64,000 nucleotides of DNA from an uncultured Candidatus Bathyarchaeia archaeon (GCA_964491605.1 CAZBGY010000003.1:24678-88677); one strand, 5' to 3'; positions 3,917-47,680 are shown, numbered from the stretch's first letter. The notes: a model not told the origin generated them from the letters alone. Made by a program: numbers and translations.

Positions 3917-4834
3917 CTACACGTATATATCGACCTGTATATCTCTAGCTAAGTTAGCATATCTATTCCTCACCGTTACCTCAGTAACGTTAGCAGCTTC
4001 AGCTACTTCCCTTTGAGTTTTCCTACATCCGCTTATAATCGAAGCCATATAGAGAGCCGCAGCGGCTATACCCGTAGGATTCTTCCCGTTAGTTATCTTG
4101 AGTGTTCTAGCGACTTCCACTATCCGGTATGCTATAAGCTCAGCTGAAGCTGGAAGCTGTAGAGGTTTAGCTATATGCTTAACATAGCTATGAGGGGGTA
4201 TAGGTGTAACTGTTATCGTGAGATCCTTTATAAGCGAACGGTAGCTCCTACCTATCTCCTTCTTATCCATCATGGATATCCTCGATAATTCATCTAGAGT
4301 TCTCGCATGCTTACATAGATGGCATGCGAGGTATACGGCGGCTGCAGCCATACTCTTTATAGATCTACCCTTAACCTTATTATTCTCTAAAGCTTTACGG
4401 TATACTACCGATGCAGTCTCCAGGACGGGTTTAGGTAGATTCAACGCCGATACTATCTCCATTATAGTTCTAAGAGCTAAAGCTAGGTTCCTATCCCTAG
4501 CACTCGATAGACGACTACGACTCTGCAATCTTCTAAGATTCATAAACTGGCTTAGCTTACCGATAGATAGACCACTTCTAGGCTTGATATCTATAATCGT
4601 GGATAGACCTTTATCGTGGACGGCATACGTTATAGGAGCACCTACACGTGTACGTCTCTCCCTCTGCTCATCGTCGAATGCACGCCATTCAGGACCTAGA
4701 TCCATAAGCTTATCATCGATCACAGAGCCACATGCACTACAGACGATCTCGGCTCTATCGTAGTCATATATCATGTTACGAGATTTACAGTGCGGACAGA
4801 TAATCTCTACATCATCTTTATTTTCATTCGACAT
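3917..4834 (-). CDS. tfb: Transcription initiation factor IIB (TFB)
   Basis: N-terminal zinc ribbon CPHC...CSAC followed by two cyclin-like repeats; 305 aa. Confidence 0.9.
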   Translation of the reverse strand: MSNENKDDVEIICPHCKSRNMIYDYDRAEIVCSACGSVIDDKLMDLGPEWRAFDDEQRERRTRVGAPITYAVHDKGLSTIIDIKPRSGLSIGKLSQFMNLRRLQSRSRLSSARDRNLALALRTIMEIVSALNLPKPVLETASVVYRKALENNKVKGRSIKSMAAAAVYLACHLCKHARTLDELSRISMMDKKEIGRSYRSLIKDLTITVTPIPPHSYVKHIAKPLQLPASAELIAYRIVEVARTLKITNGKNPTGIAAAALYMASIISGCRKTQREVAEAANVTEVTVRNRYANLARDIQVDIYV

Positions 4835-22236: not shown

Positions 22237-22324
22237 GCGGGGGTAGCCAAGCTAGGTCTAAGGCGCGGGACTGAGGCTCCCGTGGGGTAGCCCTTCGTGG
22301 GTTCAAATCCCACCCCCCGCACCA
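22237..22324 (+). tRNA. tRNA-Leu (anticodon GAG), encoded CCA
   Basis: Acceptor GCGGGGG/CCCCCGC; anticodon stem CGGGA/UCCCG with loop CUGAGGC; long variable arm; T-arm GUGGG-UUCAAAU-CCCAC; 3' ACCA. Confidence 0.8.
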
Positions 22325-42885: not shown

Positions 42886-43983
42886 ATGAAGATAACTATA
42901 TCCGTTATAAAAGCCGATGTAGGATCCCTAGCTGGGCACCATATAGTCTATCAAGAGCAGATAGAGCTTGCTAAGAAGATTTTAGAGAAAGCTAAGGATG
43001 ACGGTTTGCTGATAGACTACTACGTATTCAACGCCGGCGATGATCTAGAACTTGTAATGACCCATACTAAAGGTGAATCTAGCCCTGAGATCCACGGCCT
43101 AGCTTGGAATGTATTCAAGGAAGTGACGGAGAAGGTTTCACGTCCTAGAAAACTGTATGCCGCAGGCCAGGATCTACTAAGCGAGGCATTCTCAGGTAAC
43201 GTTAGGGGTATGGGGCCTGGAGTAGCCGAGATGGAGATAGAGGAGAGGAGGAGTGAACCTATAATAGTCTTCGCCGCTGATAAGACTGAGCCTGGAGCAT
43301 GGAATCTACCTCTATACAGAATATTTGCCGATCCATGGAACACAGCTGGGTTAATCATAGATCCAGCCTTACATCAGGGTTTCGTCTTCAGGGTTATGGA
43401 TGTAATCGAAGGTAAGACGATAGACCTGAAGACACCTGAAGAAGCATACGATCTACTAGCTTTGATAGGTACTACAGGGAGGTATATCATAGAGAGAGTA
43501 TATAGAGCTGATGGATTACTAGCAGCTGTAGCTAGCGTGACAAGACTAAGCTTGATAGCAGGTAGATATGTAGGTAAGGATGACCCTGTATGCATAGTCA
43601 GATGTCAGCATGGCTTACCAGCTGTCGGAGAAGCTTTAGCCCCATTCTTCACACCACACTTCGTAGCAGGCTGGATGAGGGGGTCACACTACGGACCGCT
43701 AATGCCTGTAGGCTTAAAGGATAGTAGATGCTCATTCTTCGACGGACCACCCAGAGTGGTAGCACTAGGATTCCAGCTAGCTGAAGGTAGGCTAATAGGA
43801 CCTGCCGATCTCTTCGAAGATGTAGCATTCGACCATTCACGTAGAATAGCTCTACAGATGGCTGAACTTATAAGAAGGAATGGACCTATAGCACCGGCTA
43901 TACTAGGACCGGAAGAACTCGAGTATACAGGTATAAAGGAGACTCTACAGCGCCTAGCATCTAGATTCAAATCTGAGAAGTAA
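42886..43983 (+). CDS. fbp: Fructose-1,6-bisphosphate aldolase/phosphatase (class V FBPase)
   Basis: MKITISVIKADVGSLAGHH N-terminus, characteristic of the archaeal bifunctional FBPA/P; 365 aa. Confidence 0.9.
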   Translation: MKITISVIKADVGSLAGHHIVYQEQIELAKKILEKAKDDGLLIDYYVFNAGDDLELVMTHTKGESSPEIHGLAWNVFKEVTEKVSRPRKLYAAGQDLLSEAFSGNVRGMGPGVAEMEIEERRSEPIIVFAADKTEPGAWNLPLYRIFADPWNTAGLIIDPALHQGFVFRVMDVIEGKTIDLKTPEEAYDLLALIGTTGRYIIERVYRADGLLAAVASVTRLSLIAGRYVGKDDPVCIVRCQHGLPAVGEALAPFFTPHFVAGWMRGSHYGPLMPVGLKDSRCSFFDGPPRVVALGFQLAEGRLIGPADLFEDVAFDHSRRIALQMAELIRRNGPIAPAILGPEELEYTGIKETLQRLASRFKSEK

Positions 43984-44155
43984 CTAAATATACATATTCA
44001 CGTCAATATAGTCCAACCTATATTTTTCCCCTATGGATACAGCCATTACATCTAACTACACTTCTCTGTAGTTATCACACTAAAAGCGTTTCCAACAGAC
44101 TTAAATCTAAAACCTAGATGAAACATTAGAATCGCCGGTCGATAGGCGATACCCC

Positions 44156-44425
44156 GTTACATCTCCATCGCGATCCTGTAGAGATATAGCGGTGGAGACG
44201 TAACAGTGGACAGCCTCCTCCCCCCGGAGGGGGAGATCTACCGGGGGGATCTCCCCCTGGGAGACTGCCCACTGTTATGCCTCCGCTACTATATCTCTAC
44301 AGGATCAAGGTGGAGATGTAGCCTTCAGGAACCCCTAGGTCCCCCGCCTAGGAGTTCCTGAAGGTAGGGGATGCTTACAATTAACCGTAGGCTCCGAAAC
44401 CGGAGCTGAAGGTTAGTTGTAAGTC
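44156..44425. repeat. Compound palindromic element: about 54-bp imperfect inverted arms (44156-44209 / 44269-44322) around GC-rich hairpins, followed by two further long hairpins (44322-44364, 44373-44425)
   Basis: The reverse complement of 44269-44322 matches 44156-44209 at most positions. The centre is CTCCCCC-CGGA-GGGGGAG and GGGGGGATCTCCCCC. The second hairpin is CCTTCAGGAACCCCTAGG...CCTAGGAGTTCCTGAAGG. The third is GCTTACAATTAACC...GGTTAGTTGTAAGTC. Confidence 0.6.
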
Positions 44426-44498
44426 ATGGAGGAAACTCCTATCGCCTGACAAACGGCGTCTACCTTCTAAGTAAATCGATGCGGATCTGAAGGATATT

Positions 44499-44762
44499 CT
44501 AGATGGATCTTAGTTCCTGTTGGCCTCTACCCGTGAGCTTCCACATGGATGGCCTCTCAGATATTCTTACAATTATACCATCCTGCTCCATCTTCCTAAG
44601 CTGTTTTAACGTTGCTGAGTAAGATCTACCCACCGCTCTAGCTATAGTACTTGTATCGATTAACCCTTCCTTCAAAGCCTTCACTATAAGGCTGCGTGTT
44701 TCAAGCCCCTTCTTTACGTTTCTAACGGTAGCTAGGTAAGATCTCGCTTCATATCCATCCAT
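44499..44762 (-). CDS. Small winged-helix DNA-binding protein (MarR/TrmB-like)
   Basis: 87 aa; a predicted HTH (TSTIARAVGRSYSATLKQLRKMEQDGII) followed by a wing. Confidence 0.45.
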   Translation of the reverse strand: MDGYEARSYLATVRNVKKGLETRSLIVKALKEGLIDTSTIARAVGRSYSATLKQLRKMEQDGIIVRISERPSMWKLTGRGQQELRSI

Positions 44763-44857
44763 CTAGATCTACTTAACCTCCGATAGTATGAATGTTTATT
44801 CCGGTATCTTAACGTTTATCTCTAGCTTTAGGTATCTATCAATCGTGGTTTCGGTTT

Positions 44858-45880
44858 ATGTCTAGGAGGATACTTGATGGTGATGTTATCTATAGTAGGG
44901 ATGGATTCATATTCTATGTATTCGGCTACGAACACCCGCCAGATAGAGCTATAGCATTCCTTAAGTATATCCCAAAAGAATACTCTGATAAGCTTAATCT
45001 GGAGTATCTAAAGTACGAATGGGTGTTTAAGGGAAGGAGGTATGTTAGACCTGCTTCGCTCTATACGGCTAGCAACTATCAACGTATAATAGAATTCTTC
45101 GAAAACTATTACCCAGACTATGTATACGATTGCCATGTAAACGGTAGAAAGCTTATAGCAGTCCCTAAAGATTTAATCGAGGAAATCTACTATCCGGATG
45201 AGGGGCTACGTAAGATTCTAGGTATCAGCTCGCTTCCACCCATATACAAGGTTTCGGTGGAGCTTATCGAACTTATCTCGAGAACATCCGGTATCGGCTT
45301 AGAAAATTTCGGTTTACATGGATCGCTCCTTCTAGGTATGGAGTCTGAGAAGCCCGATATAGATATAGCCGTCTACGGATGGCAGAACTACCGTACGATT
45401 AAACAGACTCTCATGGAGTTGGAAGCGAAGGGCTATCTAAAGATCCTCTACGAAACTCCTACAGATTATAGAAGGAGGAATAGATGTATCTTCAGGAACT
45501 ATAGAGCTGTCTTCAACGCTATACGTAAACCTTGGGAAGTTCACGATATATACGGATCCGTGATACGTAAATCGGTTAAGCATGTAAGATTTAGGACAAT
45601 AGTTAGAAACGCTTCTGAATCGATATTCCGTCCAGCCATATACATAATACAGGGATACACGCCTTTAGATGAATCCTCACGCATAGATAAGGAGGATATT
45701 CCGTGGCTTCTAGTATCGATGGTAGGAGATTATAGGGATGTGATCGAGGAGGGCTCTGTGATAGAGGTCGCAGGTCTACTTGAAAGAGAGTATCTACCAG
45801 ATGGCAGGCCGTATAGGACTAGGGTTATTGTAGGTTCGGGTTTAAGAGATGACGAATATATAAGTGTAGTGAAGGAGTAA
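44858..45880 (+). CDS. Nucleotidyltransferase-fold protein, paralogue A (unknown family)
   Basis: Pol-beta-type motif [24 protein letters not shown] in the middle of the protein; conserved N-terminal domain G-x-I-F-x-V-x-GY-x-HPPD shared with the next gene. Confidence 0.45.
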
Positions 45881-45885
45881 ATCGT

Positions 45886-46956
45886 ATGTCTACGAGGCTT
45901 AGAGATAGAGATTATATCGTCGGAGCCGAGGGTATAATCTTCAGGGTTTTAGGCTACTTCCACCCTCCAGATGGCTATATATGCGAGCCGGAGTATGCAC
46001 CTAAAAGGATATTCACATCCGAAAATCCTAGAGCACTTAGAGGCTACCCTGAAATATCATACTTCAAATTCTATGGAGATGAAGGGTTAAGATTCGTAGA
46101 GGAGAATTATCCGTCGTATCGTCTATACGTTAAACCTCTTAAAACATACCTCGTAGGCGTTCCCAATAATCTTATCGCAGCTGTTAGGAAACCGCAGGAT
46201 AGGCTAGCTAAGATCATAGAGGAAAGCTACAGAGATAAGCTTCTAGAGGATACCCTCGATATCGTGGAGATCGTATGCGAAAATGCAGAGCTCAACCTCT
46301 CTAGTCTAGGCGTTTTCGGATCGATTCTACATGAATTTTATAACCCATTCCTATCGGATATAGATTTAGTAGTTTATGGGTCGAAGAATACTATTAAGCT
46401 TATGGAATGCTTATCCGAGCTGTACAGTGGAAGAGACAGTCCTCTTAGGAACGAATATGATTTCCCTGTGGAGAAAGCTAGATGGATCTTTAGAAACTAT
46501 AGCTTTAAGGAATACATCTTTCATGAAAGAAGGAAGATGATATACGCTAAGTATTGGGATGGGAGTAGATGGGTTAAAGTCGAGTTCGAACCTGTTAGGG
46601 ATTATGACGAATACCATAACGAATACATGGATGTAAATTCGATAGAGAAGATCGGATGGGTTAAACTCGAATCTATCATTGTAGATGATAGTGGGGTATA
46701 CTTTATGCCAGCTACATACGGGGTTGAAGTAACGAAGCTTATATCAGGTCCTAAGGAGGCTTTAGAGGCTTCTAAGATAATATCCTATATCGATGAATTC
46801 AGGATTCAAGCCTGGAGGGATGAAGAAGTCTACGTGGAGGGGATGCTTGAAAGAGTCGTTAGGAATGATGAAGTGGAATATCAGGTTTCCATAACATACT
46901 GCGATAGGTATGGAGACCAGGTTCTTAAGCTTAAGAAGATACCAGGTAGATTATAA
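45886..46956 (+). CDS. Nucleotidyltransferase-fold protein, paralogue B (unknown family)
   Basis: LGVFGSILHEFYNPFLSDIDLVVYG motif; N-terminus MSTRLRDRDYIVGAEGIIFRVLGYFHPPDG aligns with paralogue A; shared IFRNY and G(L/M)LER motifs; 5 nt intergenic gap. Confidence 0.45.
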   Translation: MSTRLRDRDYIVGAEGIIFRVLGYFHPPDGYICEPEYAPKRIFTSENPRALRGYPEISYFKFYGDEGLRFVEENYPSYRLYVKPLKTYLVGVPNNLIAAVRKPQDRLAKIIEESYRDKLLEDTLDIVEIVCENAELNLSSLGVFGSILHEFYNPFLSDIDLVVYGSKNTIKLMECLSELYSGRDSPLRNEYDFPVEKARWIFRNYSFKEYIFHERRKMIYAKYWDGSRWVKVEFEPVRDYDEYHNEYMDVNSIEKIGWVKLESIIVDDSGVYFMPATYGVEVTKLISGPKEALEASKIISYIDEFRIQAWRDEEVYVEGMLERVVRNDEVEYQVSITYCDRYGDQVLKLKKIPGRL

Positions 46957-46993
46957 GCCATACATTTTTTAGTATCCTCTACACGAGGGTTAA

Positions 46994-47680
<687 letters not shown>

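Follow-up and report, generated by a model that had tools for sequence, protein, structure and literature searches.

The question raised by this locus is what kind of element fills an intergenic region that folds into a long palindrome followed by further hairpins. The DNA analysed, called the window throughout, is a stretch of 64,000 nt from an uncultured Candidatus Bathyarchaeia archaeon (GCA_964491605.1 CAZBGY010000003.1:24678-88677). An earlier note on this DNA had described positions 44156-44425 as three stacked hairpins between the convergent genes fbp and wHTH, and had offered a structured non-coding RNA (ncRNA), a foldback or MITE-like element at an insertion boundary, or a binding site for the wHTH protein as candidate identities. 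The location was found as described, 149 nt past the fbp stop codon and 40 nt past that of wHTH. To our knowledge, very few large structured archaeal RNAs have been recognized beyond rRNA, tRNA, RNase P RNA, SRP RNA, and guide RNAs. Surveys for such molecules have scarcely touched the uncultured Bathyarchaeia. The following genes surround the element:

42886-43983, + strand: fbp, fructose-1,6-bisphosphate aldolase/phosphatase, flanking ORF
44499-44762, - strand: wHTH, 87-aa winged-helix protein, flanking ORF
44858-45880, + strand: NT1, Pol-beta-type nucleotidyltransferase, paralogue of NT2
45886-46956, + strand: NT2, Pol-beta-type nucleotidyltransferase, paralogue of NT1
46994-47680, + strand: tpiA, triosephosphate isomerase, flanking ORF

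Folding was carried out on positions 44120-44470. The element (44133-44458, + strand) forms a single closed structure, composed of the helices P1 and P2 around a 6x6 loop, a long rod, and three further hairpins. The minimum free energy structure of 44133-44458 had -222.1 kcal/mol, compared to -118 +/- 5.3 for 100 dinucleotide shuffles (z = -19.7), so that the RNA folding check proposed in the note came out clearly in favor of structure. The minus strand folded nearly equally well (z = -20.2), as expected of an element composed of hairpins. When the 64 kb were scanned in 637 sliding windows of 300 nt, the element was the top outlier (-178 versus a mean of -71.5, sd 14), and its G+C content is 0.53-0.58 versus ~0.42 in the surroundings.

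Reading of the sequence, a repeat finder, and folding all confirmed the stacked long hairpins in 44156-44425. The GC-rich core with CTCCCCC-CGGA-GGGGGAG is present at 44218-44235, together with a second tip hairpin at 44241-44260. Several dimensions had to be corrected. The imperfect palindrome exists, but its arms are 61 nt long and 84% complementary (44158-44218/44260-44320) instead of 54 bp; both hairpins said to follow with about 18 and 14 bp are there, with arms of 18 nt (94%) and 23 nt (83%), the latter pair spanning 44374-44423 within hp3. The structure assigned to a 270-bp element is real, but the ncRNA unit measures ~326-336 nt (44127/44133-44458/44462) with the enclosing P1 and P2 and a GNRA hairpin at 44428-44439 included. 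The parts of the unit and its putative signals are as follows:

44100..44106, + strand: TATA-like box CTTAAAT, putative promoter, located 27-33 nt before P1; predicted start ~44128-44132
44133..44458, + strand: whole structured ncRNA, P1 5' strand to P1 3' strand, from folding; 134-pair consensus, 35 pairs doubly compensatory
44133..44137, + strand: P1 5' strand CGCCG, partner CGGCG at 44454-44458; inner 3 bp in 10/10 loci, with C-G to U-A changes
44138..44143, + strand: J loop 5' half GUCGAU (consensus GUCRAN), opposite GACAAA at 44448-44453 (consensus GAYAAR); 6x6 internal loop
44144..44151, + strand: P2 5' strand AGGCGAUA, partner UAUCGCCU at 44440-44447; 8 bp, 95% of cells paired
44152..44155, + strand: P3 5' strand CCCC, partner GGGG at 44367-44370; encloses rod and hp2; 4 pairs, C-G changed to U-A in one of them
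44158..44320, + strand: long rod, arms 44158-44218/44260-44320, with two tip hairpins
44218-44235, + strand: rod tip hairpin 1, CUCCCCC-CGGA-GGGGGAG, loop CGGA
44241-44260, + strand: rod tip hairpin 2, CCGGGGGG-AUCU-CCCCCUGG, loop AUCU
44322..44364, + strand: hp2, 18-bp hairpin with 94% complementary arms and heptaloop UCCCCCG (44340-44346), from repeat finder and folding
44371..44427, + strand: hp3, 23-nt arms (83%), 3x3 loop GUA (44387-44389) versus GAA (44408-44410), distal 7-bp stem
44428..44439, + strand: hp4, GGAG-GAAA-CUCC tetraloop hairpin adjoining P2, stem invariant
44459..44468, + strand: pyrimidine-rich tail UCUACCUUCU after P1, probable termination region

Outside P1, positions 44127-44130 can pair additionally with 44459-44462, in the analysed window alone.

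For comparison between species, the element was queried by BLAST and nhmmer against 170 fetched loci. Homologues were found solely at the orthologous position downstream of fbp, in nine further distinct Bathyarchaeia sequences; including the window, ten distinct loci carry the RNA and fall into two clades. Clade A comprises the window, L001 (=L082), L002 (=L169), L161/L162, and L163, with L170 and L081 as partial members, and clade B comprises L004 (=L083), L005, L084 (=L167), L164, and L006 (~L085). The fbp protein of the window is 95% identical to those of the 'Candidatus Bathyarchaeota' MAGs JZ_bin_32 and SKYB62, and 84-86% identical to those of a second group including Bathyarchaeota archaeon B24. 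The order fbp (+), RNA (+), wHTH (-), NT1 (+), NT2 (+) is common to all ten loci. A 51-codon ORF at 44206-44361 was rejected as protein-coding, being frameshifted or stop-interrupted in L001, L002, and L163.

The five sequences of the clade A alignment are 75-89% identical to the window. The clade B RNA is dissimilar to them in sequence, equally structured, and located at the same spot. Little primary sequence is shared between the clades, which are linked as homologues by synteny, by the closing motif, and by the 3' domain, for which the covariance models R1 and R2 were built. Model R2, derived from clade B only and run on 94 kb, both strands, with filters off, had its top match at 44370-44459 of the window (24.9 bits, E about 1e-5) and also matched L163, L001, and L002. 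As a sequence-only clade B profile did not match the window, a structure-aware model was needed to connect the two clades. Within the accessible data, the RNA family is restricted to a group of Bathyarchaeia of hot-spring and hydrothermal origin.

The note had called the substitutions between the two arms compensatory-looking; pair compensation was assessed between species, since a single sequence cannot show it. For the five clade A sequences (alignment A3), RNAalifold gave 134 pairs, of which 35 were changed on both sides, and for the five of clade B (alignment A4) 95 pairs, of which 14 were compensatory, with several invariant G·U pairs; as the sequences are few and related (five distinct per clade), these counts overstate the number of independent events. 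In an independent count on clade A, 95.2% of the cells were paired versus 40-46% when the 3' partners were slid by 1-3 columns, and the covariation score was reached by none of 500 column shuffles. In the closing region aligned across both clades (alignment A8), six of the eight P2 pairs were doubly changed and the inner three P1 pairs covaried. The covariance check against homologous loci, also proposed in the note, thus revealed compensatory pairs in both clades.

Conservation is unevenly distributed over the individual parts. The J loop holds eight positions invariant in all ten loci (G, U, C, A versus G, A, A, A; 5'-GUCNAN / 5'-GANAAN) and only 35% of its cells are Watson-Crick compatible, which suggests a structured non-canonical motif, likely a protein or tertiary contact site. 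In clade A, hp2 has 17 pairs, seven of them doubly changed, with 97.6% of cells paired, and its loop and inner stem are invariant in all five sequences. Hairpin hp3 is homologous to the clade B hairpin CUAUAACC...GGUUAUAG. The hp4 loop of clade A reads GAAA in three sequences, GGAA in L002, and GAGA in L163.

The pairs also carry information on the strand: a G·U pair on the + strand corresponds to an A·C mismatch on the minus strand. G·U outnumbered A·C in both clades: the counts were 52:25 overall in clade A (p = 0.001), with 13 versus 0 in hp3, and 56:11 in clade B (p = 1e-8). From this excess of G·U, the RNA is read from the + strand. The long rod considered separately gave 29:19 (p = 0.10); the rod by itself thus holds little strand information, whereas the enclosing helices do carry it, and with such a ratio the rod pairing could be kept partly at the DNA level. 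The minus strand of L163 folds more stably than its + strand (-220.8 versus -199.9 kcal/mol).

Upstream of P1, a box (T)CTTAAA(T/A) occurs at an equivalent distance in 10/10 distinct loci, and archaeal promoter geometry points to CTTAAAT as the promoter. Downstream of P1, a T/C-rich tract follows in all loci (T6 in L006, T5 in L163, T4 in L004, and the tail listed above in the window), and this pyrimidine tail probably acts as the terminator. T-rich runs were also found 3' of the fbp stop codon, ahead of the TATA-like box, and the overall geometry fits an independent archaeal transcription unit rather than an fbp 3' UTR. The promoter, the ends, and the expression of the RNA are accordingly described here as predictions from sequence.

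These signals bear on the possibility that the element acts in cis, be it as a stabilizer or terminator in the fbp 3' UTR, as a roadblock for wHTH, or as a DNA operator of wHTH. Its position between convergent genes, close behind both stop codons, would suit such a role. The conserved TATA-like box at promoter distance between fbp and the RNA speaks against it, as do the T-rich tracts already present 3' of the fbp stop. The note had remarked that there is more structure than an archaeal terminator needs, and this holds for ~300 nt with 134 covarying pairs and an internal loop that does not vary. For an operator, the divergent promoter region of wHTH and NT1 (44763-44857) would be the expected place, not the sequence past the stop codon, and the strand bias of the G·U pairs argues against a DNA site. 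The binding site for the wHTH protein suggested in the note found no support, for the same two reasons, as the element lies beyond the wHTH stop codon and its strand-asymmetric G·U pairs point to RNA and not DNA. A cis-acting element of any of these types is highly improbable in our view.

The structured ncRNA, the first candidate of the note, is the one that the comparison strongly favored, by covariation across species, the excess of G·U over A·C, the TATA-like box, the T/C-rich tail, and synteny in two clades. What is generally expected of a structured ncRNA was found here: a compensated structure, strand asymmetry, no conserved ORF, and transcription signals, the latter based on sequence.

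The two clades differ in the interior of the RNA. At the position of the rod, clade B has the irregular helix H1 and, after it, a three-way junction (H2) in which two hairpins are capped by GNRA loops. This domain carries GNRA/UUCG tetraloops and ~60 conserved unpaired nucleotides, such as those of GUCGUCUAAARUCGAAAGG, CUCAACGGAG, AGUAGAUAGG, and CUUAAACC, and L006 has an extra ~60-nt insertion at H1. Nearly all of these conserved unpaired nucleotides are missing from clade A, a loss that would be surprising were they the seat of the function. Most simply, an older RNA was remodelled in clade A: near-perfect helices took the place of its central domain, while the closing motif and the 3' junction were retained.

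The long rod is one of these helices and the fastest-evolving part of the clade A RNA. Its arms are 60-85% identical within the clade, a range similar to that of the fbp-RNA spacer (65-92%), while the 3' domain (hp3, hp4, P2', P1') shows 84-96% identity with the window. The rod has 54 stem pairs, 23 of which are doubly compensated in clade A, and selection on it appears to act on base pairing alone. Its tip hairpins, short and perfectly paired, differ among close relatives. Each arm is built of nested palindromes with direct repeats CGTTACATC.CTATAG. A cruciform or three-hairpin form of the rod was rejected, being ~50 kcal/mol less stable than the rod form (-73 versus -122 kcal/mol). The sequence L081 is 100% identical to L001 through fbp and the spacer and lacks ~125 nt of the rod, deleted between the repeats, with a 33-nt hairpin left; this deletion may be a population variant or an assembly artefact, as the contig stops inside the RNA.

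On these grounds the rod might be regarded as a foldback or MITE-like DNA element, or as a palindromic amplification inside an older RNA gene, in which case the clade A RNA would be remodelled and possibly decaying and the rod would have no RNA-level function. Nested palindromes with direct repeats, arms that evolve almost as fast as the adjacent spacer, the ratio of merely 29:19 in the rod, the deletion in L081 next to a flank identical to that of L001, and the quite different, irregular domain at the rod position in clade B all fit such a history. Other observations run counter to it. The five diverged clade A sequences all retain the rod, with 23 doubly compensated pairs, and the promoter box, the 3' domain, and hp2 are clearly constrained; the deletion in L081 may, as stated, be an artefact of assembly at a contig end. 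A rod without RNA-level function is considered quite unlikely.

Copy number and borders weigh on the same point. The element is present once in the 64-kb window; with model R1, no second copy outside the orthologous site was found in ~1 Mb of related archaeal loci, and the element is absent from the virus, phage, and plasmid collections IMG/VR, INPHARED, and PLSDB. The search for other copies suggested in the note, by which a MITE would be multi-copy, thus matched orthologous sites only. Neither a target-site duplication nor terminal inverted repeats were noticed at the rod edges on reading the sequence. As to the presence/absence polymorphism expected of a MITE, the element is located at the same site in 10/10 distinct relatives, and no relative that has the neighboring genes lacks it there. 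The only polymorphism at the site is the internal L081 deletion between direct repeats. Identification as a MITE or foldback was consequently abandoned, and the long palindrome is classified as a fast-evolving peripheral helix. The rod is probably a peripheral expansion that arose by palindromic duplication at the DNA level.

The suggestion that the element marks the edge of an insertion holds in an evolutionary sense. Outside clade A, 44 fetched loci contain both fbp and tpiA, and in 30 of them these genes are separated by 22-160 nt; such close pairs include those of Bathyarchaeota RBG_16_48_13, Nezhaarchaeales, Methanomethylicia, and Desulfurococcales. Clade A has four loci with both genes, and there the gap is 3.0 kb and contains exactly RNA-wHTH-NT1-NT2. 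Since this 3.0-kb block parts two genes that are nearly adjacent elsewhere, with the RNA as its first element, the idea of an insertion edge is supported, and the distribution among the loci supports an old event common to the lineage. Beyond NT2, tpiA follows in clade A and a Ham1-like gene in clade B. In L070, fbp and tpiA are 2.8 kb apart; this locus was rejected as a comparable block, the genes in between being unrelated.

The constant company of the RNA raises the possibility that it is a component of an RNA-wHTH-NT1-NT2 cassette, as a substrate, a primer or template, or a ligand activating NT1/NT2, with wHTH as the local regulator. The four elements occur in the same order in all ten loci of both clades, while the genes past NT2 differ, and the block parts a gene pair that is adjacent in many archaea. 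In the AlphaFold model of NT2 (pLDDT 93.4), a beta domain at the N terminus is followed by a nucleotidyltransferase core of the Pol-beta type, which resembles GLD-2/TENT2, CutA, and cGAS-like receptors, and the C terminus forms an SSB-like OB fold. According to this model, the NT proteins could plausibly act on nucleic-acid 3' ends, and the RNA and the enzymes may be partners. On the other hand, NT2 homologues are numerous in Bathyarchaeia (239 matches), and those of L165, L166, and L168 (Promethearchaeota) have no nearby wHTH gene; nor was the RNA 3' domain found in these three loci with model R1. The association could also be plain inherited synteny in one lineage. The search for wHTH homologues returned close relatives only. 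Overall, we regard a functional cassette as unlikely.

Several known RNA families were compared with the element. A very divergent SRP (7S) RNA or RNase P RNA that escaped the covariance models would find some support in the length of 280-340 nt, the pairing of the two ends, and the long rod bearing two tip hairpins, all of them superficially reminiscent of archaeal SRP RNA. Neither RNA was found elsewhere in the 64-kb window, an absence to be expected for most stretches of this length. With Rfam 15 at gathering thresholds, however, the whole window returned only a tRNA-Leu at 22237; at E <= 1 on window positions 43000-46000 and on five loci, and at E <= 10 with lax filters on the isolated clade B element of L006, no family matched, chance hits to miRNA-type hairpins aside. 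No match was obtained with the covariance models Archaea_SRP (RF01857), RNaseP_arch (RF00373, type A/M), and RNaseP-T (RF02357).

Inspection of the structure led to the same result. Helix 8 of SRP RNA presents a GNRA tetraloop flanked by symmetric and asymmetric AGCA-type loops and binds SRP54. No such motif was seen in alignments A3 and A4, where both the tip hairpins and the GNRA hairpins have short stems paired throughout, with no AGCA-type loops. Similarly, neither the CR-I/CR-V P4 pseudoknot of RNase P RNA nor a GGAAAGUCC-type CR-I near the 5' end was seen, and hp3 and hp4 fill the place expected for the 3' strand of P4. The helix order fits neither RNA, and the tip hairpins vary between close relatives. 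Furthermore, the standard set of RNase P proteins has been reported for Bathyarchaeota (PMC4919917), so that a standard RNase P RNA is expected there. That the element is a disguised member of either family seems hardly credible.

Guide RNAs are recognized by C (RUGAUGA) and D (CUGA) boxes in a k-turn by the terminal stem, or by an ACA box 3' of a pocket hairpin. The J loop reads 5'-GUCRAN / 5'-GAYAAR, and a box C/D or H/ACA guide RNA was rejected. A box C/D or k-turn reading of the loop fails in that CUGA is missing in four of the five clade A sequences (which have CCGA) and that four extra nucleotides between GA and P1 depart from k-turn geometry. No bulge-helix-bulge motif was assigned either, as the internal loops found in the rod are all of the symmetric 1x1 or 2x2 type and the J loop cannot adopt a 3-4-3 geometry. 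An archaeal replication origin, in which inverted ORB boxes would flank an AT-rich unwinding element next to orc1/cdc6, was dismissed, too: the palindrome is most G/C-rich at its center, its neighbors are fbp, wHTH, and the nucleotidyltransferases with no orc1/cdc6, and the G·U asymmetry indicates RNA. No description of such an RNA was found in the literature searched.

Taken as a whole, the locus very probably contains a genuine new structured ncRNA gene. With almost the same confidence, we propose that it is a stand-alone gene of ~330 nt on the + strand with its own TATA-type promoter and a pyrimidine-rich end, representing a new family of Bathyarchaeia. In the mechanism that we put forward, transcription would start on the + strand from the TATA-type promoter and end in the pyrimidine-rich tract. 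The family core would consist of P1, the invariant 6x6 J loop, and P2, which would close a multi-helix junction with the conserved hp3 and hp4 on its 3' side. The RNA might then act in trans as a folded scaffold, most likely within a ribonucleoprotein, with the J loop and the hp3/hp4/P2 junction as the putative binding platform, because these are the sole parts kept in both clades. In clade A, further contact sites could be provided by the invariant hp2 heptaloop UCCCCCG and by the 3x3 loop GUA/GAA within hp3, and the rod would remain a peripheral expansion, selected for pairing alone. This trans-acting scaffold mechanism is tentative, and we hold it to be somewhat short of an even chance. Less likely still, and unlikely overall, is that the element represents an archaeal functional RNA of a new class. 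It would be the partner of the NT pair in a transferable RNA-wHTH-NT1-NT2 cassette, as a substrate, a primer or template, or an activator, or else a new ribonucleoprotein or ribozyme, whose unpaired core in clade B would have been remodelled in clade A to a dsRNA rod with 61-bp arms.

For further work, the locus supplies a well-delimited RNA of 280-340 nt, backed by covariation, with two architectures, a sharp closing motif, and defined neighbors. Clades A and B form a natural experiment on which parts of an RNA are dispensable, and on how a near-perfect duplex with 61-bp arms arises and persists. If the RNA were linked to the OB-fold nucleotidyltransferases, this would indicate an undescribed archaeal RNA-modifying or RNA-sensing system.

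Among known systems, archaeal SRP RNA (RF01857) is similar in length (~300 nt), in its paired ends, in a rod with two tip hairpins, and in being GC-rich in a thermophile with an AT-rich genome. The element differs from it by the lack of a model match, of the helix-8 motif, and of Alu-domain helices 3/4 before the rod, by unconserved tip hairpins, and by a different order of helices. With MITEs and foldbacks it has in common a long imperfect nested palindrome, internal direct repeats, and a position where a block begins that has split an ancestral pair of genes; unlike them, it is single-copy and orthologous in all relatives, has no target-site duplication noticed, and lies within a covarying RNA structure.

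The rod is best compared with the expansion segments of rRNA, RNase P RNA, and SRP RNA. Like these, it is inserted in a conserved core and changes fast in sequence while its pairing is kept, and length differences are large (the 125-nt deletion in L081; the ~60-nt insertion at H1 in L006). Here, in contrast, the host RNA is not itself a known one, and the nearly perfect nested palindrome of the rod suggests an origin by inverted duplication at the DNA level.

The whole RNA most resembles the bacterial orphan ncRNAs OLE, raiA, ROOL, and GOLLD (PMC12286853, PMC12054373). These are likewise several hundred nucleotides long, multi-helix, and supported by covariation; they are restricted to certain lineages (here to extremophiles), have no known biochemical function, and were noticed through an unusually structured GC-rich intergenic region. 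The present RNA is archaeal and smaller, shares no homology with them in sequence or structure (no Rfam match), and consists in clade A for one half of an unusual near-perfect duplex with 61-nt arms instead of an ornate irregular fold. It thus adds a new family to the orphan structured ncRNAs, a kind already familiar, from a lineage of archaea that has been little explored.

Peripheral helices of the RNA, a structured non-coding RNA of ~330 nt (window 44133-44458, + strand), vary considerably in length among the related loci. At L081 (4262-4320, contig Ga0209394_1000070), the long rod, the 61-nt-arm helix of the clade that includes the window (clade A), is shrunk to a 33-nt hairpin, with flanks 100% identical to those of L001. 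The missing part of the rod went through a deletion between direct repeats of the form CGTTACATC.CTATAG. As the contig stops inside the RNA, at 4403, the shortened form represents either an assembly artefact or a variant present in the population. A second peripheral helix that differs greatly in length is found in the B24-type RNA of the other clade (clade B), where L006 (7320-7385) and L085 carry a G/C-rich insertion of ~60 nt at the tip of the irregular helix H1 compared to other clade B members.

In clade B (L004-L006, L084, and L164), a downstream AUGACG(Y)C can be paired with either the 5' single-stranded GCGUCGUC or the strand GGUCGUG of the three-way-junction helix H2, as exemplified by L005 (7265-7285 and 7445-7455). 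The sharing of one AUGACG(Y)C by two strands suggests that the clade B RNA adopts an alternative pairing or a pseudoknot.

The small tetraloop hairpin hp4 carries GGAGG-type Shine-Dalgarno-like strings in both clades. A micro-ORF of 7-8 codons (window 44425-44450, AUG GAG GAA ACU CCU AUC GCC UGA) overlaps hp4 and the 8-bp closing helix P2. Its frame is likewise uninterrupted in the clade A relatives, L163 having GUG; most likely it is a side effect of the pairing being conserved. The 51-codon GTG ORF within the RNA (window 44206-44361) is not conserved: a frameshift or a stop interrupts it in L001, L002, and L163.

Within the 64-kb window, the sole RNA gene recognised by Rfam or ARAGORN is tRNA-Leu(GAG) (22237-22324).

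In the window lineage, fbp is separated from tpiA by a 3.0-kb block (window 43983-46994) comprising the RNA, the wHTH gene, and the paralogous Pol-beta-type nucleotidyltransferase genes NT1 and NT2. In clade B, tpiA has gone from the downstream side altogether. In many archaeal lineages, tpiA adjoins fbp with a gap of 22-160 nt (loci L007-L013, L026, L028, L035, L043, and others).
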